Positions 20,019-53,178 of a stretch of DNA of 57,469 bases are shown here, in pieces. The notes beneath the pieces were generated by a model. The model did not search any database, was not told the origin of the DNA, and saw only the letters and a program-made list of their open reading frames with translations. The stretch comes from an uncultured bacterium (lineage in GTDB: Bacteria > Verrucomicrobiota > Kiritimatiellia > RFP12 > UBA1067): the NCBI GenBank assembly GCA_902763655.1, contig CACWSW010000022.1, positions 1 through 57,469 on the forward strand, given 5' to 3'. Within the stretch, counting starts at the first letter, position 1; each line of letters opens with the position of its first letter. The translations under genes and the position numbers were made by a program.

Positions 20019-23000
20019 CTACCGACACAGCGATACGGGACCGAGCAATCCGGCGGGCTTCGGCGGCGTGCCCTTCTTCGGGCCCGCAATCGTCCATGTC
20101 TTGCGGTCCTTTTCAGGCAGCCCCGCGTCGTACGCGAGCCGGTTGAACCACGTGGTGGTCACGTCCACGCGCAGTTCGTTCGCGCCGTCCTTCACGAACT
20201 CGCCGATCGCGCAACGGTATGGCGGCGCCCAGAGCGTACGCACCTTCTTGCCGTTCACGAACACGTCCGCGACGGTCTCCACCACGCCAAGGTCGAGCGT
20301 CAGCGCCGAAACGGCATTGCTGGCGGGAGGGACGCGCTCCCGCGCGTCCGCACAGGTGAAAGTGGCCGTGTACGTGGCCGTGCCAGAGAAGTGGCGGCCT
20401 TCCTCGCCGAGCGGCAGTTCCGTCCAAGATGCGAGCTTGTCAAGCTTGAGCGACGCCGGCGCACCCCACCCGGCGGGGAAGGAGAGCGTCCAGTTGTGCA
20501 GCGAAACGGGAGGGACGCAATTTATTGCGTCCGCGGTCGCAGCAAGCTGCGACCCTCCCGGTTTTTCGGTCGCAACAAGTTGCGACCCTCCCCGATTGAA
20601 CACCACGAACACGCATTCTGCGGAAGCGAGGTCGAGCTTGACCGTCGTGCTGCCTTCCTCCGCGTGCGGAATCTCCGGCGCGTAGCATTTGCCTGTCACG
20701 GGATCCCACACGGTTACGTCCCCTTCCGCACGGAACGTCACCTCTCCCGAGTACGGGTCCATGCCGTTCGCCGACACGAAATACCAGTCCGCCGTGGCGT
20801 CGCGCCGGTGCAGCCACTCGACCGGGCGTTCCCCCTTCCGCCAGTCGGACGGTCCGTCGCCCGCACACGTCACGTCTGGCTTGATTCCCTCGACGACATC
20901 CTTCGCCGAACCGTAGACCACACGACTACCGCATTTTATAAAATGTGATAGCTTGGCCTTCACGGCGTCCGACATCCACCTGCGCTCCGGCACCCACAGC
21001 ACCTTCCACGTCACGCCCTCCGGCGTCGTGAAGAGCCCGTCCTTCACGGAGATGCGGTTCAAGAGCGCGTCCTTGTTCACGTAGTCGTACTTGTATCCTG
21101 GCGGGAACGGACTGCGCTCGCTCGGCTTGTGGCCGACCTCCTCGCCGAGGTACCACAGGATGTCGTTCACTGGCTTGCCTGCCTCGAGCATCGTCTCGCA
21201 CCGCGCCACCCACTTCGTGAACTCCGGCATGTGCTTCCACCAGGCCTGGCCGCGGATGAACGGCGTGCCGATGCAGTGGCCAAAGCTCGACCCCGGCGGC
21301 AGCCAGTCCGTGCGCGGGTTGTGCGTGTAGGTGTGGAACACGAGGTGCGTCACGCCGCGCGCGAACGCGTGGTTGATCGTGCCCTTCAGGTTCTTGAAGT
21401 CCTCGTCCCACTTGAGGCGCATCGACGTGCAGGCTTCGGCCGCCACGCGCCCCTTGCCGTACACGTGCGCCGCCGACGCGCATGGGATGATCGGCTTGAA
21501 GTCGTCCTGCCCCACGCTCGACTCGGCGCGCGGGAACCAGAACTCGCACATCGGCGTGTCGCAGTACTTCCAGAACGCCATCAGGTCGCCCGGCAGCACG
21601 TCGCCGAACGCCGTCTCGTACTGCGCCGTCATGCCGTACACGCGCGCCAGCTCGTCCATGCGCGCGTAGTAGTTCTTCTCCACCAGCTCACCGAGCGTCT
21701 GGCGCCAGTCGCGCAGGAAGTCTTCCGTCTTCTCCGGCGAGTCGATCACCCAGCCGAAGACGGCCGGCAGCTTCCTGCGGAAGTCGTAGCCGCGCGCCGC
21801 GCGGAAATCGGATTCCAGCGAGCGCGTCCAGGTCTGGCGGCGGCACTCCCAGCTGTCCACCACGAAGCCCTTAAGCTTGCCGCCCGCGAGCGGTCCCTTG
21901 GCGAGACGGCCGATGTAGGCGGCGAAGTGCGCGTCGATGCCTGCGCGATCCATCTTGTTGCACTCCCAGCCCGTCGCCTCCTTCGGCGCAGGGCCGTTGC
22001 GCGTGCCGTTGTTCACGTGGCCGATGCGAAGGATCGTCCATGCGCCTGCGGGCGGAGCCCACTCGAGGGTGCCGTCCTTGAACTTGTCCGTCAGGTCCAG
22101 AACCGCATCGCCGCGGATGCAACCGGGAGGGACGCAATTTATTGCGTCCGCCGAACCTTTCTCGGTCGCAACAAGTTGCGACCCTCCCCGTTTCGCGGTC
22201 GCGCAGGAGCGCGACCCTCCCAGACCTCGCAGCACCCAGCCGGCCTTGCCCTCCCAGTTGTGGAGGCGTGCGCCTGTGCGGAAACGCACGAACGGCACGT
22301 TGGCCGGATGCGCGTGCTTGATCTCCACTGTCCATTCCGCGGACGGCGGCATGTCGCCGAGCGCCATCGTGAACGGCACGCCATCCTGCCAGCAGCCTTG
22401 CGGCACTTCCGCCGAAACGCCACGGACCGAGACCGTCACGCCGGGGGCATACGCCCAGTCGTGGTTCATCTGGCGCGGCGACGGCAGCTCCACCGAACGG
22501 AACGCCATCGGCTTGTCGAAGCGGTAGACGAGCCTCAGCACGCCGTCCTTGTCCGTACGCTCTTTCGGCTTCGTCTCATAAAATCCAGGCGTGTCTCCGG
22601 AGGGCGTAGGGAACGCGAGCACGAAGAGGTCGTGGTAGTCGAGGTCTTCCGCTTTCAGGCGCGACTCCATCTGCCAGTCCGGAACTTGCAACGCCAGCCT
22701 CACGGGCTTGCCGCCAGTCACGTCCGTGCGCGAGTAGGTGAGGTTGCGCATAGCGTTCGACGGAGCGATCCACGGGCCGCCGCTCATAGACCAGCCGGGG
22801 CAGTTCTGCATCTTGAACGAGAGGCCGCGCGCCGCGCAGCCATCGGCGGCGAAGCGGATGAGGTCGTCCCAGTCTGCGCTAAGGCAGGGAATCTGCGGCG
22901 AGACGCCCGGCCACGGTCCGCCAAACTGCCCGTGGAAGAGCTGTATGCCAGAGATGCCGGCCGACGCCACCGCGTCGAGATCGGCCGCCAGGCCGCCTTT

Positions 23001-23138
23001 CGCCACGTTGCCGCCTATGAGGTGGAACCACGTCTCCGGGCGGTGTTCTTTCGATGGATCAACGAACGGACCGACCTCGATGGCCCACGCCGTTCCCGCC
23101 GCCAGCAGCAGCGCGCTTGCGCACAACGATCTTTTCAT
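20019..23138 (-). CDS. Glycoside hydrolase family 106 (alpha-L-rhamnosidase-like) carrying in-frame palindromic insertions
   Basis: RPETWFH.IGGN, MQNCPGWSMSGGPW, GWEC.K, VDSWE, PMCEFW, VAAEACT, HTYTHNP, HFSGTATY, GLLGPV motifs. Confidence 0.9.
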   Translation of the reverse strand: MKRSLCASALLLAAGTAWAIEVGPFVDPSKEHRPETWFHLIGGNVAKGGLAADLDAVASAGISGIQLFHGQFGGPWPGVSPQIPCLSADWDDLIRFAADGCAARGLSFKMQNCPGWSMSGGPWIAPSNAMRNLTYSRTDVTGGKPVRLALQVPDWQMESRLKAEDLDYHDLFVLAFPTPSGDTPGFYETKPKERTDKDGVLRLVYRFDKPMAFRSVELPSPRQMNHDWAYAPGVTVSVRGVSAEVPQGCWQDGVPFTMALGDMPPSAEWTVEIKHAHPANVPFVRFRTGARLHNWEGKAGWVLRGLGGSRSCATAKRGGSQLVATEKGSADAINCVPPGCIRGDAVLDLTDKFKDGTLEWAPPAGAWTILRIGHVNNGTRNGPAPKEATGWECNKMDRAGIDAHFAAYIGRLAKGPLAGGKLKGFVVDSWECRRQTWTRSLESDFRAARGYDFRRKLPAVFGWVIDSPEKTEDFLRDWRQTLGELVEKNYYARMDELARVYGMTAQYETAFGDVLPGDLMAFWKYCDTPMCEFWFPRAESSVGQDDFKPIIPCASAAHVYGKGRVAAEACTSMRLKWDEDFKNLKGTINHAFARGVTHLVFHTYTHNPRTDWLPPGSSFGHCIGTPFIRGQAWWKHMPEFTKWVARCETMLEAGKPVNDILWYLGEEVGHKPSERSPFPPGYKYDYVNKDALLNRISVKDGLFTTPEGVTWKVLWVPERRWMSDAVKAKLSHFIKCGSRVVYGSAKDVVEGIKPDVTCAGDGPSDWRKGERPVEWLHRRDATADWYFVSANGMDPYSGEVTFRAEGDVTVWDPVTGKCYAPEIPHAEEGSTTVKLDLASAECVFVVFNRGGSQLVATEKPGGSQLAATADAINCVPPVSLHNWTLSFPAGWGAPASLKLDKLASWTELPLGEEGRHFSGTATYTATFTCADARERVPPASNAVSALTLDLGVVETVADVFVNGKKVRTLWAPPYRCAIGEFVKDGANELRVDVTTTWFNRLAYDAGLPEKDRKTWTIAGPKKGTPPKPAGLLGPVSLCR
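20325..20351. repeat. REP-like palindrome, single copy, inside the GH106 CDS (encodes ADARERVPP)
   Basis: GGGAG-GGACGCGC-TCCC-GCGCGTCC-GC: 8-bp perfect stem. Confidence 0.8.
20508..20593. repeat. Cluster of three REP-like palindromes inside the GH106 CDS
   Basis: GGGAG-GGACGCAAT-TT-ATTGCGTCC (20508-20532); GGTCGCAGC-AA-GCTGCGACC-CTCCC (20535-20559); GGTCGCAAC-AA-GTTGCGACC-CTCCCC (20568-20593). Confidence 0.9.
22125..22221. repeat. Cluster of three REP-like palindromes inside the GH106 CDS
   Basis: GGGAG-GGACGCAAT-TT-ATTGCGTCC (22125-22149); GGTCGCAAC-AA-GTTGCGACC-CTCCCC (22164-22189); GGTCGCGC-AGGA-GCGCGACC-CTCCC (22197-22221). Confidence 0.9.
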
Positions 23139-25514: not shown

Positions 25515-25565
25515 GCCGCCAAGATGGCGGCTCTCCATACGGTCGCAATAAATTGCGACCCTCCC
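25515..25565. repeat. Two intergenic REP-like palindromes
   Basis: GCCGCC-AAGAT-GGCGGC-TCTCCA (25515-25537) and GGTCGCAAT-AA-ATTGCGACC-CTCCC (25541-25565). Confidence 0.85.
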
Positions 25566-25584
25566 GTTTCTGCTTTTCCTACCT

Positions 25585-25619
25585 ATTCACCCTTCACCTT
25601 TCACCCTTCACCTTTCACT
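25585..25619 (-). repeat. Heptamer tandem array, about 5 x GGTGAA(A/G), starting at the stop codon of the upstream gene
   Basis: + strand ATTCACC CTTCACC TTTCACC CTTCACC TTTCACT. Confidence 0.85.
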
Positions 25620-26995: not shown

Positions 26996-28933
26996 CTATG
27001 GCGCGAGCGTGACGGAGATGGTTGCGGTGCCATCGGCTGCGGCAGGGACAGCGAACGAGATACGGCGGAAACCCTTGTTGGTGCAATCCCACGGATTGAC
27101 GGGCTTGTCGAGCTCCAGCACATCCCACTTCACCTGCTTCGGCGTCTCCACGTGCAAGAAGAGCCGTTTGCCCTTCTGCGCCAGCACGAGACGATTCCCC
27201 TCGCTCGACTCCACCGTGCCCGAGGTGACCATCTGCCAGCGCAGCGGCGTGCCGGGCGCAACGCCGGAGAAGTCGTCCCGCACCGTGGCCGCGCGCGTCG
27301 CGCGGTCGAGCGTGAAGGTGCGCCTGGCGGATTTCACGCAAGGGCCGTAGATGGACGCGAGGTCCAGCTGCACGGTGGTGAGTCCGGCCGGGACGACATT
27401 CGCGAAGCCGGCGACCATCTGGCGGTTGGTGCCGACGACCACGAGGTTGTGGCTCTCGTTGCCGAGGCGGAACACGTCCCAGCGCGAGGAATTCTGCTTC
27501 ATGTTGAAGAGCGTGAACGTGCCGAGTTTCTCGATCGAGTGGTAGTTCTGCGAACCAAGGTCCTCAGCCCAGCGCACACCGTCCGCGTCGAACACGAACG
27601 AGCCCACGTCCATGTGCCCGTGGTTGTATTTTGGCATGCCGCCCTTGACGCCGAGGAACGACGCGTCCGGCGTAAAGCCGCTGCGGAGCGCGGCGACCGG
27701 ATTCTCGCCATGCGAAAGGTAGCGGAGCGGCAAGCGGCTGGGCGCGTCCACGAGCGGAAAGCGTCCCCAGAGAAGGACGAGCGCGGGAAAGCGTCCTGTG
27801 ACATCCTCGGTCTTGCCCGTCTCTTTCCACTTCGCCGTGGCGGCGCGGAGAGCGGCATGCTCGCGGGCTAGCCAGTCCGTGCGCCCAGTCTGCGCGGCGA
27901 ACCACCAGAGCGTGTCGGCGCTGCGCCGAGAGCGTCCGCAGTCGGAATAGTTGAAGTAGAATCCGGACGTTCCGGTGAGGGCGTTGATGTATTCGCCCGT
28001 GTGCAGGAAGCCGGGCGCGTCGGCAAGGCCGAAGTCCGTGCCGAGGGCGGAGCGCCAGATGGCGAGAAGGTAGACGATGCGTCCCGTGCCGTAGCCCCAG
28101 TAGCCGGGCCCTTCGGGATATGCACCCACGGGAGCGTATGGCTCGAACGTGCGTGGAAGAGCGTGGACGGCCTCGAGAATGAGCGCCTCGGCACGCGCGG
28201 GATCGTCCTCGGCTGTGGCGATGGCGGCGGCGGTGACGCCGTTCCAGCAGACCTGCCCCCAGTTGTTGTTCGTCTTGCGCCACCAGCTCTGCTGGCGCTC
28301 GATCTCGTCGAAGCCCTTGTCCTTCATCGCCGCCAGGATCGTCGCCCGGTCGTCGGGACCGAGCGCGTCGTAGCACCAGTCGTAGCCGATCGCGAGGCCG
28401 AGCAGCATCTCGGCGACTCCGAGGTAGTGCGTGGGCACCCAGTCGCTCCAGGCGCACGCGGACAGCATCTCCTCGCGGCAGCGGTCGGCGTAGCGGCGTT
28501 CGCCGAACATCTGCCATGCCGAGGAAAGCGCGATGACGCGCGAGGTGAACGTGTTGCCGGTCGACAGGCGGCGTCCCGTCTGGCGGCGCGGCGGCGCCTT
28601 CGAGCCCATCACATCGTCTGCCGCCTGGCGGATGCGCGCCACGAGAAAGCGCTGCTCGTCGCACAGTCCGGCGTCGTCGCGGAATCGCGACAGGGCGGAA
28701 GAGCTGTTGATGAAGAGGCGCGGATGCGTCTTAGGCATCGTCGCAAGACGGTCGCGAACCTGCTGCGCCGTGACCTTGCGTGGATCCTGCGACTTCTTCT
28801 TCGCCTCTGGCGTTGCCGCGGTTGTGGCATCCACGGCGGGCTTGGCCGACGCGGACGGCGTCGGGCTGCTGGTGCTGACGGTACAGCCGCCAAGCAGCAG
28901 TACCGCGAACAAAGCATAGATTCTGATCTGCAT
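26996..28933 (-). CDS. Heparinase II/III-like polysaccharide lyase, lipoprotein
   Basis: Lipobox LLGGC; HPRLF, NNWGQVC, EGPGYWGYG, FNYSD, HGHMDVGSFV.D..GVRWA.DLG, HN motifs. Start ATG 28933. Confidence 0.85.
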   Translation of the reverse strand: MQIRIYALFAVLLLGGCTVSTSSPTPSASAKPAVDATTAATPEAKKKSQDPRKVTAQQVRDRLATMPKTHPRLFINSSSALSRFRDDAGLCDEQRFLVARIRQAADDVMGSKAPPRRQTGRRLSTGNTFTSRVIALSSAWQMFGERRYADRCREEMLSACAWSDWVPTHYLGVAEMLLGLAIGYDWCYDALGPDDRATILAAMKDKGFDEIERQQSWWRKTNNNWGQVCWNGVTAAAIATAEDDPARAEALILEAVHALPRTFEPYAPVGAYPEGPGYWGYGTGRIVYLLAIWRSALGTDFGLADAPGFLHTGEYINALTGTSGFYFNYSDCGRSRRSADTLWWFAAQTGRTDWLAREHAALRAATAKWKETGKTEDVTGRFPALVLLWGRFPLVDAPSRLPLRYLSHGENPVAALRSGFTPDASFLGVKGGMPKYNHGHMDVGSFVFDADGVRWAEDLGSQNYHSIEKLGTFTLFNMKQNSSRWDVFRLGNESHNLVVVGTNRQMVAGFANVVPAGLTTVQLDLASIYGPCVKSARRTFTLDRATRAATVRDDFSGVAPGTPLRWQMVTSGTVESSEGNRLVLAQKGKRLFLHVETPKQVKWDVLELDKPVNPWDCTNKGFRRISFAVPAAADGTATISVTLAP

Positions 28934-28939
28934 GCGGGA

Positions 28940-28950
28940 AGTATACCACA
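28940..28950 (-). promoter_or_regulatory. Extended -10 (TGTGG-TATACT) 6 nt upstream of ATG 28933 (leaderless-type)
   Basis: Seen directly; no SD. Confidence 0.65.
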
Positions 28951-28952
28951 AA

Positions 28953-31900
28953 TCACCGGAAGATCACGGCCGTGCCGGCACCGAACACCCGGCAGAAGAA
29001 CGCGCCGCCCGCGATCCCGAAGCGCACATGCCTGTTCGCACCGAGGTTCGTCACCGTCCAGCGCGCGGCGAGGTCGCCCGTGCCGGTGTCCACCACCTCC
29101 GCGCCCTGGCCGATCACCCACGTGCCCGTGGCCGTCGGCGACGGCAGCGTCACCGTGCCGCCGCCGCAGACGATGACCTTGCGCGGCGTCGAAACGAACG
29201 GACCCTTGTTCGCGTCCGAGACCGTGAGCGCCGTGCCGTCGACGATCTCCACGTCGCCCGGATAGGCGGTACTGGCGGCCGGGTCAATCGTGAGCGGACG
29301 GAACGTGGCCGGAATGGACGTGACGCCCGCCGGCAGCACGAGCGCGCCGCCCGCCATCTCGAAGACACCCGTGAAGTTCGTCGGGTTCTGCCCGAGCGTC
29401 AGCTCCGCCCCAGCCGGCAGCACGAGCAGACCGTCGCCCGCGAGCGTACCCGCGAACGTGTTGGTGGAGGTAATCGCGAGGCGGCCGCTCGCAAGGTCGA
29501 GCGTGCCCGCGCCCGTGAGCGCGCCGAAGGACTCGTCCGTGCCGTTCACCTCCAGCGTCGCCCCGGCGTCCACCGCCACCGCGCCGTCCGCGGGCAGCAC
29601 GCGCAGCGCCCCGGCGTCCGCGCGCATCACGGCGCGCACCTGCGGGATGTTGAACGGCTTGTCGAACACCTTCACCTCGTCGAGGCAGCCCCTGAACGGC
29701 GCATCCACCGCCGTCGACTTCCCGCCAAGGTAGAACACGCCGCCATTGCGGCAGGAATCGTAGTTGAACGCCCCGGCCGAGTTCTTGCCGCTCACGTCCT
29801 CGCCGTCCGTGTAGATGTTGACGCCGCGCGCCGGGTCGTAGACGAGCGCCAGATGGTGCCAGCGCAGGTCCCGCTCGGAAAGAAAGAGCCCCGCAAGCGC
29901 GTTCTCGAGAAAGACGTCCTTGGCAACGCCTTCCACAGGCCTCACGTAATAGCGCAAGCTTTTCCAGCTATGGTCGTGGTGGTCGCAGGAGAGCATGCAG
30001 CCGATCGTCGCCGCCGTGGGGCTGCCCCAGCAAATGAACGTCGGCGCATGGTATGCATTGAGCGCTTCGATCTTCGTCAGGTCGTCCAGAACGGATCCCT
30101 GCACCCACAGCGACACGGTGAAGGGCCGTCCGTTGGAGGGAATCGCCTCGGGGAACGTCGTGCTCTCCAGCCGCGCCCCGAACCGAAGCGCCTTGCCGCC
30201 GAGCGGGGAGTCAACCTGCGTGAGCGTGCCGTTTCCGGCCTTCTTCAGGTGGGCGCCACCCGGCGCGGAATCCTTGCCGAGATTGGAGGAATCCTCGAAG
30301 GCGTAGTGCAGGACGGGCGCGGGCACGTGCGCGAGCGTGTCCGGCGCCTCGCCGCGCGCCGCGCCGACGGGGTCGCGCCCCGCGTAGAGGCGAAGCACGT
30401 CCGCCTCGTCGAGCGCCTTCGCGTAGATGCGCACGTCGTCGAGGAGTCCCTTGTACTGGCGGTCCGTCTTCTCGAGCTGACGACCGATGCAGACCTGCTT
30501 TGACTCCGGGATCATCAGAACCTGGGTGTTGGCTTGCGTCCATTTCTGCACGCCGTCGCAGTAGACGGTGTACGTCGTTCCCTTTCGCACAGCCACGTAG
30601 TGGTGCCACGCGCCGGCGGGGTTCGCCACGGTGGGGATGCCGGTGAAGTCGAGCACTCCGCCCCAGTGCGTCAGGACAAAACTGCCTCCTGATACGGCGT
30701 TCTGATGGCGGAAGACGATTTCCTGGAAGTCGGCCTGCTGGCCAAGGGAAACGAGCGTCGCGTTGTTGGGCGCGTCGGCGTCCGGCTTCGCCCACACGCT
30801 GACCGTGTAGTCCGTGTTGCCCGAGAGAACCGGCGAGTTGATCGTGGTCTCCAGCCCTTGGGTGGCCGTGCCCGGCAGGCGCACGACCCATCCGCGGGAC
30901 GCATCCCACTCCCGCGTCACTTCCTTCTGTGTGCTGAGGCGCCGGTGAGACCGGCTCCACTCGAAGCCGGGGTCGTCGCCATCGAAGTCGTAGATGCCGA
31001 AGATGGTCGGCTGCGTGGCCGTGCTGAGGAGCGTGAGCCGTCCGGCCTTCACCTCCGTGCCGCCCGTGTGCTTGGCCGTGCCCGTGAGCTTCAGCTCGCC
31101 GTCGCCGTCCTTCACGAGGGCGTTCGCGCCCATGGTCTCGCCGCTGTACGTGCCGCCGCCCGTCAGCGTGAGCGTACCGCCCGACGGCATCGCGAGCGCG
31201 CCGCGCACACCGTCGCAGACGATGTTCGTGGCAGGAATGACAGGAGAACCTGCGAGCAGGATGCGCCCGTTCAGCTCCGTCCGAAGCTTCGTCCCTGCTG
31301 GAATCCCCAGCGGCTCGCCCGCCGCCGCCACCGAACTGGCCGCAAACGGCTCCTCGCCCGCAAAGAGGCGCGCCACGCCCGTGCGGCCCACGGCGTGCGA
31401 ATAGACGGTCACGTCGTCGATGTCGCCGCAGAAAAAGCGTTCGCTCTGGGCGAGCCAGCCGAGGCTGATCTGCACGGTCGCCGGCAGTTTGAGCTCCAGC
31501 CTCATGTCGGACTTGTCGTACAGCTGCACGCCGTCGCACCACACGCCCACGCGCGGACCTTCGCGCATGATGACGAAGTGGTGCCACTCCGCCGGATTCG
31601 CGGGTGCCGGAAGATCGGAGAAGTCGCCCGTCGGGTTCCAGTGTCCGAGCAGCATCTGGGCGCAGTTCTGGTCCTTGTACCGGAACTGGATGAGCTGGCT
31701 GTCGGTCTGGGTGCTGCCGATGGAGATCATCGTCGGGAAGCCGTTCGCCACGGGCGTCGCCTTCGTCTTCGCCCACAGGCTCACCGTGTAGTCGGTGTCG
31801 CCCGTCAGCTCGGACTGTCCCGCCACGGTGGCGACGAGCTTGCCGCCGGAAGTGGCCGCCCCCTCGAAATGCGCCACCTTGCCGCCGCGCGCAGCGTCGT

Positions 31901-33007: not shown

Positions 33008-35380
33008 TTACGGCGCGATAACGACGCGCTCGAGAGGCGACAATGTGAAGGACAGCTTGCCGCAGGACGGCTGTTTGACTTCGCGTGGCGCACCGAACAT
33101 CACACGAGTGCCGGCAAAAGGAAGCGTTACCGCCGTCTCCTTGTTCCGCGCGTTGACCACCACGAGCCGACGCTCCGCACCGAGTGTCCAGGCCATCGCA
33201 TAGACGCCATCGACGTCCTCAGCCAGCAGTTCGCCTTTTCCGTCCAGCACGAAAGGAACAATTCCGCGCATCTCGGCGGGAAACATCTGCACCGCCTCCA
33301 GCAGGTCTGGCGCCTGGCGGATGTCGAAGGAACCGTCCGAGAACACGTAGTAGATGATACCCTTCGCGCCAGCCATCAGCGAGAGATAGCTCATCGCACG
33401 GAACTCACGCGCGTCGGGCCACCGCGGCCACGAACCTTTCTTGTCGTACTTCTGCCCGCCAAACGCCTGCCCCACGGCCCAAAGCGCCGTGTCCGCCTTG
33501 TTGGCCGCCGCCTTCGCCTCCTTGAACCGGCGGTAGACGTCGTCGACGGGACGGCGCGGCACCGGATATGGGTCGGGGGCGAGCACGTCCGTGCCCGCCG
33601 CGTAGTTGGCGTACTGGCTCGGCACGCAGATGACCGTATAGGCGATGTGGTCGGAGTCGATCTGCTTGAAGCTGTCGTAGCGTCGGAACATCTCCTGCGG
33701 CGTAATCCCCTTAGGCGCCGGCTCGTCACCGGGGTTCCACCCCATCACGGCCGGTTTCCCGCGGTACTTGCGGATCACCGACTCTGCCCTTCCCACGTCG
33801 AACTCGGTGATCACGCGAATCCCGAGTTTCGCGCACGCGTCGAGGAACGCGCCGTACCCGTCACCATCGTACTCGTCGCCGCGCATGCCCACGTGAACCG
33901 TGTTGTATCCCCACTTCGCCACGTCCTTGACCATGGCGAGACGCTCCGCCGCCGGAATCGTCCAGGAGACCTCGTAGAAGCCAAGCGGGAAGAACGGCCT
34001 GCCGTTCTCCAGCAGCACATGGTCGTCGCGCATCCGGTACTTCGGCTCGGGATGCGTGAAGAAGTACGTTTCCTCGCCTTCGCCCCAGTCAAGCAGTTTG
34101 CGCTCCAACCGATCCAGCGACTCCAGGAATCCGTCCCGGTAGCAGAGCTTCGCGCGGAACACGTGCGCGCCGGGGGCAAGGCCGTCCACCGGGATCGTCC
34201 AGTCGCCATCCTTCGCCTCGCGCATCTGCCACGCACCATCGTCGATTTGCCACGCCGCCCCATCAGGGGAGGACCACGCTCCCGCGCGGCCGCATCCTGC
34301 AAACGCCATCTGCGCCACCAACTCATCTCCCGGATACAAATGCTTGCGCTTCAGGCGGATCCCGACCGCGAGCGGCGTCGTTTCCTCCCATTCGCAGGAG
34401 AGAAGCGGCTGGCCATCCGCCTGCACGTCCAGCTTCGACTCCACTTTTCCGCTGCGCATGATCGCGCACGCCACCTCCAACGTCACCTCGCCGTTCGCAG
34501 GCACCTTGACGAAGGCCGTTTCCGTTGCCGTTGCCGCGTTGCCCTTCCACGAGGCGTTCCGTACGTTCAACAAGGCGGACAGTTTCCGGATGCGCCCCGG
34601 CTCCACCTTCATTTGGATACGCGCGACGCGCTTGCCGGGGCCGCCGCCGTCGAGGTTCGGCTCGAAGGAAATGATCTCTGCGCCCTTCTCGCGCAGACGG
34701 CGGTGTGCCGCAATGTTCTCGAGAAGCGCCAGCGCAATCGGGCTGTTCTTAAGCGACGCCGCGCTCGTAAGCACCACCATTCCTTTACCCCATTTGCGGT
34801 AGGCGAAGATCGGCGCGCCGTCCACGCACGCGACCGGCTTGTGCCACGCCTCGCCAAGTTTCGTCAGATGTGTCCACTGGTGGTAGTTGTCGCGGATGAG
34901 GCGGCCGAGCGGCTTCGGGCAGTCGGTCAGCGGATCCGGATGTGCGGTGAGGACGCGCGTCTCCTCGGAAGGTTTCGTGTGCGCGGAGCAAGAAGCGCAG
35001 CCACACGCGAACTCGGGACCGAACGCCCCCACCCAAGCCCCCAGCACGGAACCGTAGTTTGCGTCCGTGATGATGAGATTGCCGCCGCCTTCGAGCCACT
35101 TCCGCCATGCCGCAGCGTATGGACCAATATTCACCGTCTGGGTGTAGTTGGCGACCGACGCCGCGATGACAAACTGGTAGTCGCCAAGCTTTTCCGTCAG
35201 CTCAGGCAGGCGCGTGTTCTGAAATTTGTCGAATGACCATCCGAGAGCCTTTAGGTGCTTGTCGTACTCGCTCGCGAACGCACTCTTCGACCAGTCGCTG
35301 TGCACGACGGCGGCGCGTTCAGCCTCGGCCGAACATGCAAGCAAGGTGGCATACAAAAGCACGAAGATGCTCTTCTTCAT
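33008..35380 (-). CDS. Secreted uncharacterised glycoside-hydrolase-like protein (TIM-barrel C-terminal domain)
   Basis: Signal peptide (start ATG 35380); ENGRPFFPLGFY, GYNTV, MGWNPGDEP, PDPYP, GQAF, GAKGIIYY motifs typical of uncharacterised clan GH-A-like barrels. Confidence 0.75.
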   Translation of the reverse strand: MKKSIFVLLYATLLACSAEAERAAVVHSDWSKSAFASEYDKHLKALGWSFDKFQNTRLPELTEKLGDYQFVIAASVANYTQTVNIGPYAAAWRKWLEGGGNLIITDANYGSVLGAWVGAFGPEFACGCASCSAHTKPSEETRVLTAHPDPLTDCPKPLGRLIRDNYHQWTHLTKLGEAWHKPVACVDGAPIFAYRKWGKGMVVLTSAASLKNSPIALALLENIAAHRRLREKGAEIISFEPNLDGGGPGKRVARIQMKVEPGRIRKLSALLNVRNASWKGNAATATETAFVKVPANGEVTLEVACAIMRSGKVESKLDVQADGQPLLSCEWEETTPLAVGIRLKRKHLYPGDELVAQMAFAGCGRAGAWSSPDGAAWQIDDGAWQMREAKDGDWTIPVDGLAPGAHVFRAKLCYRDGFLESLDRLERKLLDWGEGEETYFFTHPEPKYRMRDDHVLLENGRPFFPLGFYEVSWTIPAAERLAMVKDVAKWGYNTVHVGMRGDEYDGDGYGAFLDACAKLGIRVITEFDVGRAESVIRKYRGKPAVMGWNPGDEPAPKGITPQEMFRRYDSFKQIDSDHIAYTVICVPSQYANYAAGTDVLAPDPYPVPRRPVDDVYRRFKEAKAAANKADTALWAVGQAFGGQKYDKKGSWPRWPDAREFRAMSYLSLMAGAKGIIYYVFSDGSFDIRQAPDLLEAVQMFPAEMRGIVPFVLDGKGELLAEDVDGVYAMAWTLGAERRLVVVNARNKETAVTLPFAGTRVMFGAPREVKQPSCGKLSFTLSPLERVVIAP
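34267..34293. repeat. Degenerate REP-like copy inside CDS 33008-35380
   Basis: GGGAG-GACCACGC-TCCC-GCGCGGCC-GC matches the 20325-20351 copy at 23 of 27 positions (manual alignment). Confidence 0.65.
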
Positions 35381-35402
35381 CGTCCTCGTCCCCAATGATG
35401 GA

Positions 35403-37526
35403 TTACAGATCGCCGCCGAAACGCGCACGCCAGTACGCGGCGAAGAGATGGACGGCGCGGCACGCGCCGACCTTGTCCGCCGGCGTGTGGACGATTGCGT
35501 TCGCGAGGATCGCCTGCTGGAAACCGCTCCACACGAACGCGTCGCGCGGCACCATCTGCTGGGCTAGATGCACTTCTGCGCATCCGCAGAGCCAACGCGA
35601 ATCGTTCCCGCGAATGGACTTCGCGCGTGCGCGCGCCTGGCGCGCGCACGTGACCATCGCGCTGATGATCTTCGCTCGGAACTTCACGCTCTTCTCGATG
35701 CCGAGCAGCACCTCGAGCGACGTGTTCATCTGCAGGAGCGTGTAGCTCGGCATCCAACGCGAGATGTCCTTCTCGGAGAGGTTCGCCAAACGGCAGGAAC
35801 CGTCGAGCGCCTCTTCGCGCAAGGAGCGATAGAGCTTCGTCCACTTCGCGTCGCCAGTGATCTCGCCAGCCGCCGCGTAGACCATGGCGAGGCGCGCCGC
35901 CTCGTGCGGCATCGTCTCGCGCATCTTGCAGATGCCGCGCGGGTCGGGCGTGCCGTCGGCCTGCAGGAAGTTCCAGCCGTTCGCCTCCGTCACGTTGCGC
36001 TCCATCAGGCCCGCCACGTCGGCGAACGCCGCGCGGATCGGAGCCTTCAGCTCGTCGGGCACAAGACCCGACCGCCAGTAGCGCCACAGTCCGTGCGCCC
36101 AGTGCGTAACCTGGTCGCGCGAAGAGAGGCGGCAGATTGACGTGCCGTCCTCCACGCAGAGGCCGCGCGCCACGAACCCCTTGTACGGATGGGCGTTGAC
36201 GAGGTTGAGAAGTCCCCTCGCGATCTTCGCCGCGTCGGCGGCGTATGCCTGGTCCTTCGTCACGGCGTATGCGTCCACAAGGCCAGACAGCGCCACGCCG
36301 CCGTTGATCGCGCAGTCCTCAAGTCCTTTTCCGTAGCCAAGCTCCGGCTTGAGAAGTCCGCCGGGGAAGTCGCGCGCCGGCTGCACGTCCTTCGGCGCGC
36401 ACACGTAGATGCCGCCCGTCTTCGGACTGTAGAACTCCTTCATCACGCGCTTCCAGGCGGCATCGACCCATGCGCGGAGCTCGGTCTCCGGCGGACGATC
36501 AAGCTTCGGCTCTGGTTTGGGAACCGCGTCGTACACGCGCACGTAGTCGACCTCGAAGAAGTCGGGCAACTGAGCCTTGAAGAGGCGTTCGTCCGGCTTG
36601 CCCCACGTGCGACGCCCGGCCGAAAGTCCGCCGTCGTTGCCGGCCTTACGGTAGCCGCCCGGCTCGGTGGAGACGAGGAGGAACTCCTCGACATGCGAGA
36701 CGGGGTAGTTCTGCTCGCCAACCTTCTTGCCGTCGCAGTAGAATGTGTAGCCTTCCGGCGTCCAGTCGCAGCCGTAGTTGTGCCAGCCGTCTGCCGTTTC
36801 CTCGTGCTTCCACGCGAAGTGGTCGAACCAGCAGGAGTTCTTCCCGTAGCCGTTCCAGCCGTTGCCGCCCACGACGATGCCGTCGGAGACAAGCCGGTAG
36901 GTTTCCATGATGTCCGTCTCCACGCCGGAGACCGCGGGGTCGGGCGTGGCGCCGACGCCCGGCGCCTGCAGCCAGAACGCGGCGTGCCAGCCGGAGTTCT
37001 TCGGCAGGCGGCAACGGATCTCGAAGTAGCCGTACTTCTTCATGAACAGTGGCTTGCGGTAGGTGCCGAACGGCCAGAAGCCGGTGGAGTCCTTCGGGAT
37101 GTCGTACGTGAGCGAGCCGGTCTGGAGGTGCGGCGAGCTGAAGTCGTCGCCCTTCCGCACGAGGTGGAGCTTCGCGGTCTCGCCGGTCATCTCCACCCCC
37201 CCGAAGTCGTGCGCAAACGCGGGGAAGTCCTGTCCCCAAAAGCTTTCGCGGCACATCCACTTCGTCTTGTCGATCTCGGCGCCGTCGAACTCGTCGTGCC
37301 AGACGAGCTTCCACGTCTTGCCGCGCGGCAGGAGGGAGTCTGCCTTGCCGGGCACGGCGGCCATCTTCACCTGGATGACCGGCGACTTTTCGATCTCGGG
37401 ATCGACGAACCGCGCCTCGGCCGTCAGCGCTGCCATCGCGACAAGCAGTGGAGTACCGTATCGTGATATCGTTTTATCACGCAGAGGCGCAGAGAACACA
37501 GAGGAGAATGAGTGTGAATAAAACAT
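35403..37526 (-). CDS. GH16 domain fused to an uncharacterised helical (probably alpha/alpha-barrel) domain
   Basis: WKLVWHDEFDG, YGYFEIR, AAFWL, ETDIME (ExDxxE), WHNYG.DW, FYCDG, VDYVRVY; second domain from about aa 345. Start uncertain (37526 or 37436). Confidence 0.8.
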   Translation of the reverse strand: MFYSHSFSSVFSAPLRDKTISRYGTPLLVAMAALTAEARFVDPEIEKSPVIQVKMAAVPGKADSLLPRGKTWKLVWHDEFDGAEIDKTKWMCRESFWGQDFPAFAHDFGGVEMTGETAKLHLVRKGDDFSSPHLQTGSLTYDIPKDSTGFWPFGTYRKPLFMKKYGYFEIRCRLPKNSGWHAAFWLQAPGVGATPDPAVSGVETDIMETYRLVSDGIVVGGNGWNGYGKNSCWFDHFAWKHEETADGWHNYGCDWTPEGYTFYCDGKKVGEQNYPVSHVEEFLLVSTEPGGYRKAGNDGGLSAGRRTWGKPDERLFKAQLPDFFEVDYVRVYDAVPKPEPKLDRPPETELRAWVDAAWKRVMKEFYSPKTGGIYVCAPKDVQPARDFPGGLLKPELGYGKGLEDCAINGGVALSGLVDAYAVTKDQAYAADAAKIARGLLNLVNAHPYKGFVARGLCVEDGTSICRLSSRDQVTHWAHGLWRYWRSGLVPDELKAPIRAAFADVAGLMERNVTEANGWNFLQADGTPDPRGICKMRETMPHEAARLAMVYAAAGEITGDAKWTKLYRSLREEALDGSCRLANLSEKDISRWMPSYTLLQMNTSLEVLLGIEKSVKFRAKIISAMVTCARQARARAKSIRGNDSRWLCGCAEVHLAQQMVPRDAFVWSGFQQAILANAIVHTPADKVGACRAVHLFAAYWRARFGGDL

Positions 37527-49423: not shown

Positions 49424-52400
49424 TCAGAGTTCTTCGCGAACCTGCAAGGTTCCGTCGTCCGCGATCTGCAGGTAGCCGGCGCGTTTCGGCCCGACAGAGA
49501 GCGCGTGGCCGCCGCGGCGAACCTCCACAGGCGACTCGCCGCCGTTCCAGAACACCCAGCCCGTCGCGCCCTCGCCCGGCACGCGATACGTCTCAAGCGT
49601 CTCGGGATCCTCCGCCCGCCGCGTGAACGCGCAGCCCGCCGCCCGCAGCTTCTCGCCCACCACGCGCCGCAGCGCCGCGGCGTCGTCCGTCGGCAACGCC
49701 TCGGGATCCAGCACGAGCTTCACGGAGCACTTCCCCATCGCGCTTTCCGTGATCTTCGACCAGTTCGCGCCCCAGTGCTTGAGCGCGGCGTCGACAGCGT
49801 ACGCCCGCTCCAGATACGCCATGCGGGTGTCCTGCGCCATGCGCGGCTCCTCGCGGAGACGGATGATCACGTCCGGAGGGTTCTCCGCCAGACGCAACTT
49901 GCCGAACGCGAGCGCCATCCGCGAGAAGATCGCCGCCGTGGGGCGCGGCACGCCCGTCGCGTGCACCATGCCGCACGGGAACAGCCCTTCCATCGGGTCG
50001 CGCCAGTGCCAGGTGAGGAGCGCGGTCGCCCCCAGCCCGAACGCGTGCGACACGAGGTTGCGGAACCGCGCCGTGTAGGCCTCGTCCGTGTCGCCTTGGT
50101 GCCACGGATCCTCCTTCACGAACGTGGGGTGGCACTTCGCGCCGCACTCCGGCATCGTCAGGGGCTTCCCGAGAGCGCGCATGTCGACGTCCTTCAGGTC
50201 GCGGAACATGCGGTCCGGCGGACCGTAGTAGTGGCGGTCGGTGAAGTCGAGGTCGAGCGTGCACCACGCCGGATCCTTCGAGGCGGCGCCGCCAGCCCAG
50301 CCCTGGCTCCAGCCGACGGAGACGAGCACGTCGGGCCGCCCTTCGCGTGCGGCCGCGCGACAAGAGGTAAGCCAGTGGCGCATCCGCTTCGCGCTGTCCC
50401 ACGACGGCGGCAGCTTCATGACCGGCTCGTTGCGGATGTCGATCATGAACCCAGGCACGTCGCGGTAGCGCACGGCGATCTCGCGGAAGTGCGCGGTCTG
50501 CTGCGTGAACGCCTCTCCCTCTGCCATGGGGTCGATGCGCTGCTGCGTGTGGTAGATCACGATGCCGTGCTTCTGCGCGAGCTGCACGCACGCGTCGGAG
50601 ATGCGCTTGTCCTCCTCGCACGTCCACGGCAGAAAGAGACGCGTGAACCGGAGTCCCATCGCGCGCATCTGGCGGAAGTCGCGGTCAAAGGACATCGGCG
50701 AACGCGCCACGGTGGGACGCGTCTGCCCCCAGTACGTCTGCGCGCCCATCCAGAACCCCGGGCGCCCGTCAAGCGCAAAGCGCGAACCGACCTGCGTGAG
50801 CTTCGGTCCGGCGGCGACCACGGACGGACTCCACACCACGAACGCGCCCGGCTCGCGGTCGATCACGCGCCCCTTCTCGTCCAGCAGCTCCGCCGTGAAG
50901 GAAACATAGTCCGGCGCGTCCGGCCCGACCGGCCACTCCGCCTCGACGGACGTGTTCTCGCCCGCGGACGCCGTGACGGCACAGGTGCGCATGCCGAGCG
51001 CGCGTCCCTTCTCGTCAGACAGCGCGAACCGCACCGTCGCGCGGCGCGCCTTCGCTCCGAAGTTCCCCACGCGCGCCCGGAGACGCGCCGTCTCGCCCAC
51101 GCGGTAGCAGGCGTAGGACGTGGTGGTCTCGTTGAGCGCGAAGCGGTCGAGCAGCTTTTGGGCGACAGCCCGCGCGAATGCGGCGGCCGACGCGTCGCCG
51201 GCGGGGAAGAGATCGACATTGTCCACGCCGAAGATCGCCCAGGCCGATCCGGCGAACGTTCCCGAATGATGGTAGACGAACGCGGCGGCGGGTCCGCGGT
51301 CCGAACCGTCCGCGGCGTACGCCTCGAGGATCGGATGCCACGCGCAACGGTTGGCGTCGTAGCCATGCCCGTTCACGCCCAACTGCGCGATGGCGGCGAG
51401 GCCCGCGCACGGACCCGTGCGCGAAAACGCCGGCAGGTCCGTGCCCGCCAGCGCGGGCGCGGGCGCGAGACGCGCCACCTGCCGCAGTTCGAACGAGGGG
51501 TCGAATGCGTTGACCTGCTTGGGAAGCGGATGGATGGCGTCGCGGATGCGCGCCGTACGCGTGTTGATCTGCGGCGGCTTCCGCGCGCGCAAAGCGGCAG
51601 AGGGATCCACGCCCGCCTTGAGGTCGGCAAACGCCACGCCCATGCGCAGGCCGTCGGCGGCCTCGCCCGGTCCAGGACCGAACGAGACGGACGTCACGGC
51701 GTCGAAGTTCAGCCGGTCACACGGGCCGCCGCGCCCGACGGCCGGCGAATCGTGCCAGTTCGCGAAGTCGGAGGGACAAAAGCGGTATTCCGTCCAGTCG
51801 CCCGTCACGGGCACGTGCACCTGCCAGCGAGAGCCGTCCTGTTCGTCCAGCTCCAGCGTCAGACGTTTGGCGCCCGTTGCCGCGCGGGCACGGAAGGACA
51901 GCAGGCTCTTGCCGGCGAGCGCGCCTTTCGGCAGCCGCATGGCCGCCGTCGCCCACAGGTGGAATCCCTCGCTGCGGACCTCGACGGACGGCAAGCCGTC
52001 CGGTCCGGAGACGTCGACGACCGAGGCCTTTTTCCCGGGCGGTGTGCTCGGCCGCCAGTCAGAGGCGGGAGCGAGGGGAATCTGCGTGTCGGCCGCGGGA
52101 TAGGGCAACTTCGTGTGGGTGATCCAGCGTCCATTTCCCGGGATGGTCGCGCTTGTCGCGACCGTATCTTTTGGATAGACGGGCTTGTCGAAGGCGTAGC
52201 CGCCGCAGGTGAAGAGCGAGCCGCCGGCGCTCAGGTAGCCGACAAGCGCGTCCGCCGCGTCGGCCGGCCAGGCCGAGCCGGTGGGAACGACGAGCAGGTC
52301 GATGGTTTCGCGCGCAAGGCAACCCTTCCGCACGAGGTCGTCGCCCATCACGCGGAAGACGTGCCCGAGCGGCGCGAGCGCGTCGAGGAACACGCCGGGG

Positions 52401-53134
52401 TCGCTCATGCAGCCGAAAGTGTTCGTGCCGGCGGGAAAGCCGAGGTCGAGCACGCCGATGCGCGGCGTGCCTGGCGGGAGGGCGTCGAGCCCCTTCGCCG
52501 CGCGCCACGCGGCGGCGGCGCGCAGGTCCTCGGCCGCGCGCTTCGCCTCGGCGAGGTCGGCGGCGGACGGCGCGTAGGCGGTCGCCGTCGTCCCCAGCTC
52601 CACCTGCGGCTCGGCGAACCAGGCCGTCCCGGAGCCGCAGAGGCAGAACACGAAATTCGCCTCGGAGGTGCCCCTCGGCAACGCGGGGATGGTCTTCACG
52701 ATGCGGGTCCAGTCCTTGTCTCCGACGACCTTGCTGTCGGAATCGTTCGCCGCAAGACGCTTGCCGCTCGCGAAGCAGTTCAGCGAGATGTAGGCCATGG
52801 AGTCGGCGGAAAGACCCTCAGTCTTCGCCCAGACGCTGATCGTGTACGGCGTGTTCGGGCGCAGGTCGCGCACGGGATGCGTGACGAGGTGCCAGACGCG
52901 CTGCTCGGCCGGCGCGGCCGTGACACGCACTGCCGGCGCGTCACCGTGGCGCACGGCGGGATCGACCTCTAACCGCACGGACGATGGGCTCTGGCACGTC
53001 CACCCTGCAGGCAGCCGCCCAAGCAGAGAGTTGGTCTGGAAGAGCGTGCCGGAGAGCAGGTTCTGCGCCCACACGGCAGACGGCGCAACGGCAAGCGCCA
53101 ACATGCAGACTCCAAGAAACGAACGACGTGTCAT
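49424..53134 (-). CDS. Large multidomain secreted glycoside hydrolase: CBM-like N-terminus, CBM11/CIA30-like insert, Ig-like domain, C-terminal clan GH-A (GH5/GH42-like) barrel
   Basis: MTRRSFL signal; YTISVWAKT..AWF..PQ.E (CBM4/9-like); LSFRAR...ELDE.DGSRW; D..RMRAMGL..TR, IDIRNEP, MPECG. Confidence 0.75.
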   Translation of the reverse strand: MTRRSFLGVCMLALAVAPSAVWAQNLLSGTLFQTNSLLGRLPAGWTCQSPSSVRLEVDPAVRHGDAPAVRVTAAPAEQRVWHLVTHPVRDLRPNTPYTISVWAKTEGLSADSMAYISLNCFASGKRLAANDSDSKVVGDKDWTRIVKTIPALPRGTSEANFVFCLCGSGTAWFAEPQVELGTTATAYAPSAADLAEAKRAAEDLRAAAAWRAAKGLDALPPGTPRIGVLDLGFPAGTNTFGCMSDPGVFLDALAPLGHVFRVMGDDLVRKGCLARETIDLLVVPTGSAWPADAADALVGYLSAGGSLFTCGGYAFDKPVYPKDTVATSATIPGNGRWITHTKLPYPAADTQIPLAPASDWRPSTPPGKKASVVDVSGPDGLPSVEVRSEGFHLWATAAMRLPKGALAGKSLLSFRARAATGAKRLTLELDEQDGSRWQVHVPVTGDWTEYRFCPSDFANWHDSPAVGRGGPCDRLNFDAVTSVSFGPGPGEAADGLRMGVAFADLKAGVDPSAALRARKPPQINTRTARIRDAIHPLPKQVNAFDPSFELRQVARLAPAPALAGTDLPAFSRTGPCAGLAAIAQLGVNGHGYDANRCAWHPILEAYAADGSDRGPAAAFVYHHSGTFAGSAWAIFGVDNVDLFPAGDASAAAFARAVAQKLLDRFALNETTTSYACYRVGETARLRARVGNFGAKARRATVRFALSDEKGRALGMRTCAVTASAGENTSVEAEWPVGPDAPDYVSFTAELLDEKGRVIDREPGAFVVWSPSVVAAGPKLTQVGSRFALDGRPGFWMGAQTYWGQTRPTVARSPMSFDRDFRQMRAMGLRFTRLFLPWTCEEDKRISDACVQLAQKHGIVIYHTQQRIDPMAEGEAFTQQTAHFREIAVRYRDVPGFMIDIRNEPVMKLPPSWDSAKRMRHWLTSCRAAAREGRPDVLVSVGWSQGWAGGAASKDPAWCTLDLDFTDRHYYGPPDRMFRDLKDVDMRALGKPLTMPECGAKCHPTFVKEDPWHQGDTDEAYTARFRNLVSHAFGLGATALLTWHWRDPMEGLFPCGMVHATGVPRPTAAIFSRMALAFGKLRLAENPPDVIIRLREEPRMAQDTRMAYLERAYAVDAALKHWGANWSKITESAMGKCSVKLVLDPEALPTDDAAALRRVVGEKLRAAGCAFTRRAEDPETLETYRVPGEGATGWVFWNGGESPVEVRRGGHALSVGPKRAGYLQIADDGTLQVREEL

Positions 53135-53143
53135 CACGACTCC

Positions 53144-53178
53144 TTTCACCTTTCACCCTTCACCTTTCACCCTTCAAA
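53144..53178 (-). repeat. Heptamer tandem array, about 5 x GGTGAA(A/G), from the upstream stop codon to the downstream RBS
   Basis: Minus strand TTTGAAG GGTGAAA GGTGAAG GGTGAAA GGTGAAA then GGAG..ATG 53134. Confidence 0.85.

Follow-up and report, generated by a model that had tools for sequence, protein, structure and literature searches.

Hairpin units of a probable REP type read in frame within the loops of a GH106 rhamnosidase-family gene from an uncultured Kiritimatiellia bacterium

This article concerns a family of short palindromic units in 57,469 nucleotides of DNA from an uncultured cattle-rumen bacterium of the Kiritimatiellia (GenBank assembly GCA_902763655.1, contig CACWSW010000022.1, positions 1 to 57,469 of the forward strand; hereafter "the window"), and above all the seven copies that lie in frame inside a gene of the GH106 alpha-L-rhamnosidase family. 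The closest described systems are the REPtrons of E. coli, Pseudomonas, and Stenotrophomonas (PMC2817692, PMC3116915, PMC6006769), in which repetitive extragenic palindromic (REP) sequences, GC-rich hairpins of 20–25 nt with a short 5′ foot, form inverted doublets and arrays (REPINs, or bacterial interspersed mosaic elements, BIMEs), each genome has its own "master" variants, and units flank the gene of a REP-associated tyrosine transposase (RAYT) with HUH (histidine-hydrophobic-histidine) and tyrosine motifs, the latter of the form Y---NP. The window family is alike in all these respects. It differs in its foot, which is GGAG within GGGAGGG and not GT[AG]G, in its large intragenic share, in a RAYT-like family that is missed by the Pfam profile Y1_Tnp, and in its hosts, which are rumen and gut Kiritimatiellae and Lentisphaerae.

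REPs inside open reading frames (ORFs) have been described before. Di Nocera et al. 2013 (PMC3733652) reported short GTAG/CGTC REPs as singles, dimers, and clusters that encode 20–82 aa in known genes, mainly DNA-repair genes, of Opitutus terrae, Thauera, and Rickettsia conorii (RPE-4/6, where RPE stands for Rickettsia palindromic element). They suggested placement in linkers and loops, and found the highest intragenic count in O. terrae, which, like the hosts considered here, belongs to the Planctomycetes-Verrucomicrobia-Chlamydiae (PVC) group; their set includes a GTGG foot variant without the TAG stop. Quentin et al. 2018 (PMC6006769) described REPs within RAYT genes themselves. A preliminary description of the locus, made from its letters only, had confined in-frame insertion, as a known phenomenon, to the long Rickettsia elements. 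This is wrong, and since short REPs in ORFs were already published, that description overrated the novelty of the case. The long elements in question, RPE-1 (Ogata et al. 2000), are presented in the citing paper (PMC3733652) as selfish palindromic DNA that lies in frame in functional proteins; as portrayed there, they are ~100–150 nt long, occur in alphaproteobacterial endosymbionts, and have no linked transposase. The window units, of 25–33 nt and unrelated in sequence, resemble them in behavior only.

We found no paper on REPs of Kiritimatiellae. The window repeats are a new REP family, but with intragenic and in-RAYT REPs on record they add a family and not a phenomenon, and REP/RAYT biology is unchanged in kind. 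Compared with the intragenic GTAG/CGTC REPs, the new family differs in unit sequence and foot, has secreted carbohydrate-active enzymes (CAZymes) among its hosts, and adds empty orthologous sites, turnover at fixed loops, and a bias in reading phase. The last two, strong phase bias and turnover at fixed loops, are what we consider most noteworthy. We think it likely that the units are a REP-type mobile family, tied to a RAYT-like enzyme, which inserted in frame, is translated as loops of the GH106 protein, and is still turning over.

The whole window was searched with the pattern GGGAGGGWCGC-N(6-12)-GCGWCC, which returned 8 exact matches (20325+, 20508+, 20535−, 20568−, 22125+, 22164−, 22197−, and 25541−) against 0.00 expected from 100 shuffles. 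Seven of the eight fall inside the GH106 ORF and one is intergenic. The units are 25 nt long, with the consensus GGGAGGG(A/T)CGC-N8-GCG(T/A)CC, stems of 8–9 bp, and loops of 2–4 nt, and so fit the short GC-rich hairpin of 20–40 nt that is typical of REPs. Two mirror sub-types exist, T (GGGAGGG-T-CGC...GCG-A-CC) and A (GGGAGGG-A-CGC...GCG-T-CC). In the GH106 gene T-type units always lie on the sense strand and read GGSxxxAT, A-type units always lie antisense and read ADAxxxVPP, and all seven share one codon phase. At sites 1 and 2 the two sub-types converge as inverted doublets, the arrangement of REPINs and BIMEs. The features are as follows.

20019–23138, minus strand: gene of the GH106 alpha-L-rhamnosidase family, whose 1039-aa product has a signal peptide; host of the inserts
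22125–22221 (aa ~306–338): site 1 cluster, with T units at 22197–22221 (−) and 22164–22188 (−) and an A unit at 22125–22149 (+), read GGSRSCAT..GGSQLVAT..ADAINCVPP
20508–20592 (aa ~849–878): site 2 cluster, with T units at 20568–20592 (−) and 20535–20559 (−) and an A unit at 20508–20532 (+), read GGSQLVAT..GGSQLAAT..ADAINCVPP
20322–20354, plus strand: site 3, a 33-nt insert with one A-type unit (20325–20349), read TCADARERVPP
25541–25565, minus strand: intergenic T-type unit between two co-directional genes

Much of this had been anticipated. The seven palindromes in an uninterrupted ORF of 1039 aa stand after pattern search, translation, and a Pfam search; the peptides first listed (GGSRSCAT, GGSQLVAT twice, GGSQLAAT, ADAINCVPP twice, and ADARERVPP) are exact translations; and the 33-nt spacing of tandem units is confirmed. 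The copy at 25541–25565 is indeed intergenic, ~36 nt beyond the stop codon of the GFO_IDH-like gene upstream, on its 3′ side, and it is missing at the syntenic position of a related contig, L122, which is 91–97% identical to the window. A CRISPR array was considered and rejected: the units occur in both orientations, inside an ORF, with spacers of just 2–26 nt.

The host gene is well defined. Pfam PF17132 (GH106) matches the ORF with an E-value of 3e-137 (459 bits), the Protein Data Bank (PDB) holds 6q2f and BT_0986 (5mqm) as sequence relatives, and the fold matches both with template modeling (TM) scores of 0.72–0.73, so that domain and fold both place the protein in GH106. The ratio of nonsynonymous to synonymous change (dN/dS) of its core against orthologues is 0.08–0.13; on this comparison the core is under strong purifying selection and the host gene is to be taken as functional. 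A pseudogene was ruled out by the same ratio and by intact ORFs in all orthologues.

In an AlphaFold2 model of the protein (mean predicted local distance difference test, pLDDT, 74; predicted TM score 0.79), residues 295–335, 851–875, and 933–943, which correspond to the three insert sites, have pLDDT below 50 and no secondary structure. PDB alignments put site 1 at the junction of the variable beta-sandwich with the catalytic domain, site 2 in the linker ahead of the C-terminal galactose-binding-like domain, and site 3 in a loop inside that domain. The inserts are thus predicted, on the model, to occupy flexible loops and linkers of the enzyme. Insert-spanning tryptic peptides encoded by the gene include GGSQLVATEK and GSADAINCVPPGCIR.

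That the units in the GH106 gene are insertions is best read from orthologous DNA. From ~1,500 GH106 homologues we aligned 30 proteins together with the DNA of eight close orthologues; rumen and gut metagenomes supplied the nearest homologues (60–95% identity), whose label, where there is one, is Kiritimatiellae. At site 3 a clean stretch of 33 nt has been inserted, TGTGC-GGACGCGCGGGAGCGCGTCC-CTCCC-GCC (window 20322–20354), and the orthologue DNA alignment reveals no target-site duplication there. The site is filled in the window, L122, and L126, exactly empty in L124, L125, L127, L128, and L129, and missing in 27 of the 30 aligned proteins. The preliminary description had expected the repeats to appear against orthologues as gaps at surface loops or domain linkers; this count, and the low pLDDT at all three sites, agree with it.

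The core-gene tree is (WIN,(L122,L124)),((L126,L129),(L125,(L127,L128))), where WIN is the window, and the filled and empty states of site 3 are discordant with it. Precise loss, repeated gain, or recombination must therefore have happened. The sister sequences L126 (filled) and L129 (empty) differ at site 3 by the exact 33-nt unit, with flanks otherwise collinear.

Sites 1 and 2 have a longer history as loops, being ~15–20 aa long even in Bacteroidota orthologues. Site 1 of other orthologues is a loop of 14–16 aa, or holds different units, or holds other hairpin families, and at both sites the combination of units varies among the closely related genomes. Within one genome the two sites have that genome's variants in common: the window's stems are QLV/AIN, those of L122 RSC/AQE. 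L125 retains only eroded relics at sites 1 and 2.

In some orthologues these loops, and a fourth one, hold other hairpin families with a GGGA foot (L124 and L126–L129; window-equivalent aa ~240, ~306, and ~850), for example GGGAGAACGGGCGTCTCGCCCGTTC and GGGAAGCGGCG-NNN-CGCCGCTTC. The fourth loop is empty in the window.

These patterns bear on a rival explanation, namely a single ancient arrival of the units, after which homologous recombination, gene conversion, and 33-nt replication slippage made the strain differences, with no enzyme-driven transposition today. Several observations suit it: the seven copies clustered in one gene, the likeness of sites 1 and 2 within a genome (which has the look of concerted evolution), the regular unit spacings of 27–51 nt, and the eroded relics in L125, an otherwise "unit-free" orthologue. 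Recombination among co-existing rumen strains would also account for the off-tree pattern of site 3. It fits less well with the precise 33-nt difference between the sisters L126 and L129, with the different hairpin families at the same loops, and with two observations set out below: identical variants in unrelated genes and at a RAYT-like locus, and the doublet arrays beside the RAYT-like gene, whose copy number varies between assemblies. On balance we hold the ancient arrival to be unlikely, yet it is the strongest of the rivals.

The most mundane explanation would be repeat-induced chimeric joins in metagenome assembly. The units are multi-copy and short-word unitigs do break at them, which is what such joins would need. 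Against this, unitigs of the bovine-gut run that best holds the window, its likely source, cover site 3, the whole of site 1, and the greater part of site 2 and agree with it at 0 differences; identical junctions recur in the runs of other studies (e.g., a unitig spanning 20137–20537, 0 differences); orthologues of eight separate assemblies have in-frame units at the same loops; and the orthologue P0002, 94% identical and with units of its own, is identical on four contigs. We rule mis-assembly out on these unitigs and leave the artefact a practically negligible probability.

The window units belong to a multi-copy family in rumen metagenomes. In four rumen runs the summed depth climbs from ~45–50 to ~900–1100 (about 20-fold) at the units, which have many unrelated flanks. 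Two scans of species-representative genomes returned, among the matches listed, mainly rumen and gut Kiritimatiellae, Lentisphaerae/Victivallales, Verrucomicrobiota, and Hydrogenedentota, and single metagenome-assembled genomes (MAGs) contribute many contigs to these matches. We fetched ~1.6 Mb of such PVC-group loci, which hold 230 hairpin units; the loci were picked by motif, and the number is hence biased.

The GGGAGGG foot is invariant in the family. In an unbiased count over the fetched loci, a hairpin of at least 7 bp follows in register at 79 of 161 GGGAGGG sites, with 41 distinct stems, and stem variants differ by paired changes (GGTCGCAAC/GTTGCGACC, GGTCGCAGC/GCTGCGACC, GGACGCAAT/ATTGCGTCC, and GGGCGCAAC/GTTGCGCCC). 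An ancestral protein repeat or linker was also tried as an explanation, and was ruled out by these paired changes and by the 25-mers identical to intergenic and RAYT-flanking copies.

The family is not predominantly extragenic, as REPs generally are. Outside the GH106 loci, 68 of the 230 units (~30%) fall in confident ORFs, defined by a strict codon-position GC rule and a length of at least 250 aa, and these are spread across 49 ORFs. Hosts of in-frame units include a GH2 beta-galactosidase (Kiritimatiellae RGIG2765), Ser/Thr kinases, a 4Fe-4S (Fer4) protein, and others. The earlier suggestion that the repeats remodel loops of CAZymes accordingly holds for the remodeling of loops and fails for the restriction to CAZymes.

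It is important to consider which frame these copies use. Of the six unit variants of the GH106 genes, five are free of stops whichever of the six frames is read. One phase is used by 55 of the 68 ORF-borne units (P 1e-15, for units of which those in tandem within one ORF are not independent). The favored phase gives GG(S/T)xxxA(T/S) or x(D/V)AxxxxPP; the remaining phases encode Arg/Cys-rich peptides. The favored phase is that of 49 of the 55 interior copies, as opposed to 6 of the 13 copies at the edges of ORFs, where the units are probably untranslated. The bias suggests selection on the translated product, and purifying selection against the Arg/Cys-rich frames would yield such a bias.

A different reading of the phase bias is that the inserts are kept as useful, either as variable surface loops (for substrate reach, proteolysis, or phage/antibody recognition) or as mRNA hairpins that pause translation between domains. 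The strong one-phase preference of interior copies and the location at domain boundaries speak for usefulness. The mRNA hairpins are very stable: at site 1 units 2 and 3 form one long hairpin (−65.4 kcal/mol, z −4.9), and site 2 folds with −52.6 kcal/mol (z −4.9). In addition, occupied loops persist in orthologues of 85–95% identity. However, unit content is unconserved between close strains, there are many unit-free orthologues whose cores are equally constrained, the same peptides occur in unrelated proteins, and the bias is as expected from purifying selection against the Arg/Cys-rich frames and is absent from copies at ORF edges. Usefulness is, in our judgment, highly doubtful, and the inserted peptides are presumably neutral.

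The preliminary description had also called for a RAYT gene flanked by the repeats, and such genes were found in related assemblies. In the first ~1 Mb of loci, neither the regular expression HUH...Y..NP nor phmmer with E. coli RayT gave a RAYT. After a second, more specific pattern scan, phmmer with the same query picked L208, a Lentisphaeraceae MAG, in which a gene with the motifs MPDHLHFF and WEYVRNNAV has units on both sides and carries GGSRSC...GGSRSCAT...ADAQERVPP in frame between its HUH and Tyr motifs. This gene is split by a one-base frameshift near 3341, between the HUH and Tyr halves, which may mean a pseudogene or a fault of the assembly; there are homologues that are intact.

Read through the frameshift, the L208 protein has 1,221 homologues of 168–335 aa without a recorded Pfam domain (the A4 family). 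When aligned, they share an invariant core of ~150 aa and carry REP-encoded peptides in two places, N-terminally and in the stretch that separates the HUH motif from the Tyr motif; 24 aligned members show an invariant PDH(I/V/L)HFF followed by Y-V-R-N-N-P. The order of HUH and Y---NP is thus that of RAYTs, and Y-V-R-N-N-P conforms to the class 2 TnpA-Y1 signature, Y---NP (PMC6006769). The best PDB match of the A4 profile is 4er8, the E. coli TnpA-REP (E 9e-7), followed by the IS200-like 2ec2 and 2f4f (E ~0.1), and hhalign gives 90% probability over 45 columns.

An intact member, P0152, is found on 14 bovine-rumen contigs. In the bovine-rumen assemblies L229–L231, 25-mers identical to four window variants, the intergenic 25541–25565 included, lie on either side of the RAYT-like gene and also inside it, between its motifs PDHIHFF (HUH) and WEYVRNNPV (Y---NP). 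The gene is directly followed by T+A doublets, arrayed with a 90-nt period (L229 3749–4020, L230 3749–4260, and L231 3749–3930), whose copy number is 2 to 5 depending on the assembly. A RAYT-like gene flanked by the same units, which is the definition of a REPtron, is therefore present in relatives, namely L208 and L229–L231. As in the REP-bearing RAYT genes of Quentin et al. 2018 (PMC6006769), the L208, P0152, and other A4 genes contain their own units in frame, N-terminally and exactly in the interval from the HUH to the Tyr motif; A4 differs from those genes in hosts and foot.

In L229 and L231 the gene caller fuses the doublet array in frame to the N-terminus of the next gene, which in L229 is an FAD-oxidoreductase. 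L144 220–1338, in Kiritimatiellae RGIG2765, encodes a 373-aa protein with an N-terminal Y1_Tnp (IS200-like) part and a Fic-like C-terminal domain, without flanking units.

Taken together, these data allow the explanation favored above, a mobile REP-type family tied to a RAYT-like enzyme, to be put as a series of steps. The units would be REP-type elements in which a GGGAG(GG) foot precedes a hairpin of 8–9 bp, with T and A sub-types pairing as REPIN/BIME-like inverted doublets, and in the rumen Kiritimatiellae/Lentisphaerae lineage the family would belong to an enzyme of single-stranded DNA that is RAYT-like (class 2 TnpA-Y1, HUH/Tyr). Landing or copying may have brought units to three flexible loops or linkers in the secreted GH106 enzyme. 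The units are stop-free in nearly any frame, and selection would spare only frame-keeping copies in one mild phase, the one that yields Gly/Ser/Ala/Thr- or Asp/Ala/Val/Pro-rich peptides. Surviving copies would be translated as extra disordered loop residues, with the enzyme core staying under purifying selection, and the occupied loops would go on gaining, losing, and swapping units, so that close strains differ at them. The RAYT-like enzyme would catalyze both insertion and excision, and the window's own genome presumably encodes one. The earlier claim of a mobile REP-like family still turning over is supported by empty and filled orthologous sites, multi-copy status in metagenomes, shared variants at a RAYT-like gene, and the low-confidence loops in which the inserts fall.

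Several points weigh against this explanation. GGAG occupies the place of GTAG in the canonical foot GT[AG]G, and published degenerate foot variants are of the GTGG kind only (PMC3733652). Pfam Y1_Tnp (PF01797) does not match the L208 RAYT-like protein at an E-value of 0.1, the similarity of A4 to RayT is limited to the two motif regions, and canonical RAYTs themselves are not known to transpose (Quentin et al. 2018, PMC6006769). With 7 of 8 window copies in one gene, local amplification or recombination is no worse an explanation than hopping across the genome. Lastly, metatranscriptomes cover pieces of the GH106 gene only and no insert junction.

A bolder version holds that the REP family has adapted to life in coding sequence, and that RAYT-driven gain, loss, and replacement at fixed loops supply secreted enzymes, and other proteins too, with hypervariable surface loops that differ from strain to strain and benefit the host instead of being just tolerated. 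The features behind it are a foot that lacks the TAG found in GTAG, open reading in almost all of the six frames, and one benign phase in which nearly all surviving interior copies are read. We regard this version as improbable.

What the locus displays is mobile hairpin DNA turning into protein, with loops that are empty, filled, refilled, and eroding in strains a few percent apart, and with a candidate enzyme adjoining identical units in relatives. It might serve as a test system for whether RAYT-type enzymes move REPs, and for which reading frames proteins tolerate. Please note that the annotation of rumen and gut PVC genomes is affected: REP peptides lengthen proteins, split domain matches, and create false N-termini.

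Beyond the eight exact matches, the window holds two imperfect units.

52140–52163, plus strand: degenerate unit with the foot GGGATGG, in frame in ORF 49424–53152 (−; 1242 aa), giving VATSATIP in the phase usual for antisense units
34267–34291, plus strand: eroded unit with a broken stem, in ORF 33008–35563 (−), in another phase, read GRAGAWSSP

Two further differences between the window and L122 may be recorded. A tandem array of short GTGAAAG/GTGAAGG units adjoins the intergenic REP (window 25566–25615, minus strand; L122 3583–3650); the array is found 3′ of the GFO_IDH-like gene in both strains, the adjacent REP in the window only. In addition, window 26996–28963 (a 655-aa ORF) corresponds to L122 980–2086 (a 368-aa ATPase_2 gene), a strain-level gene replacement.

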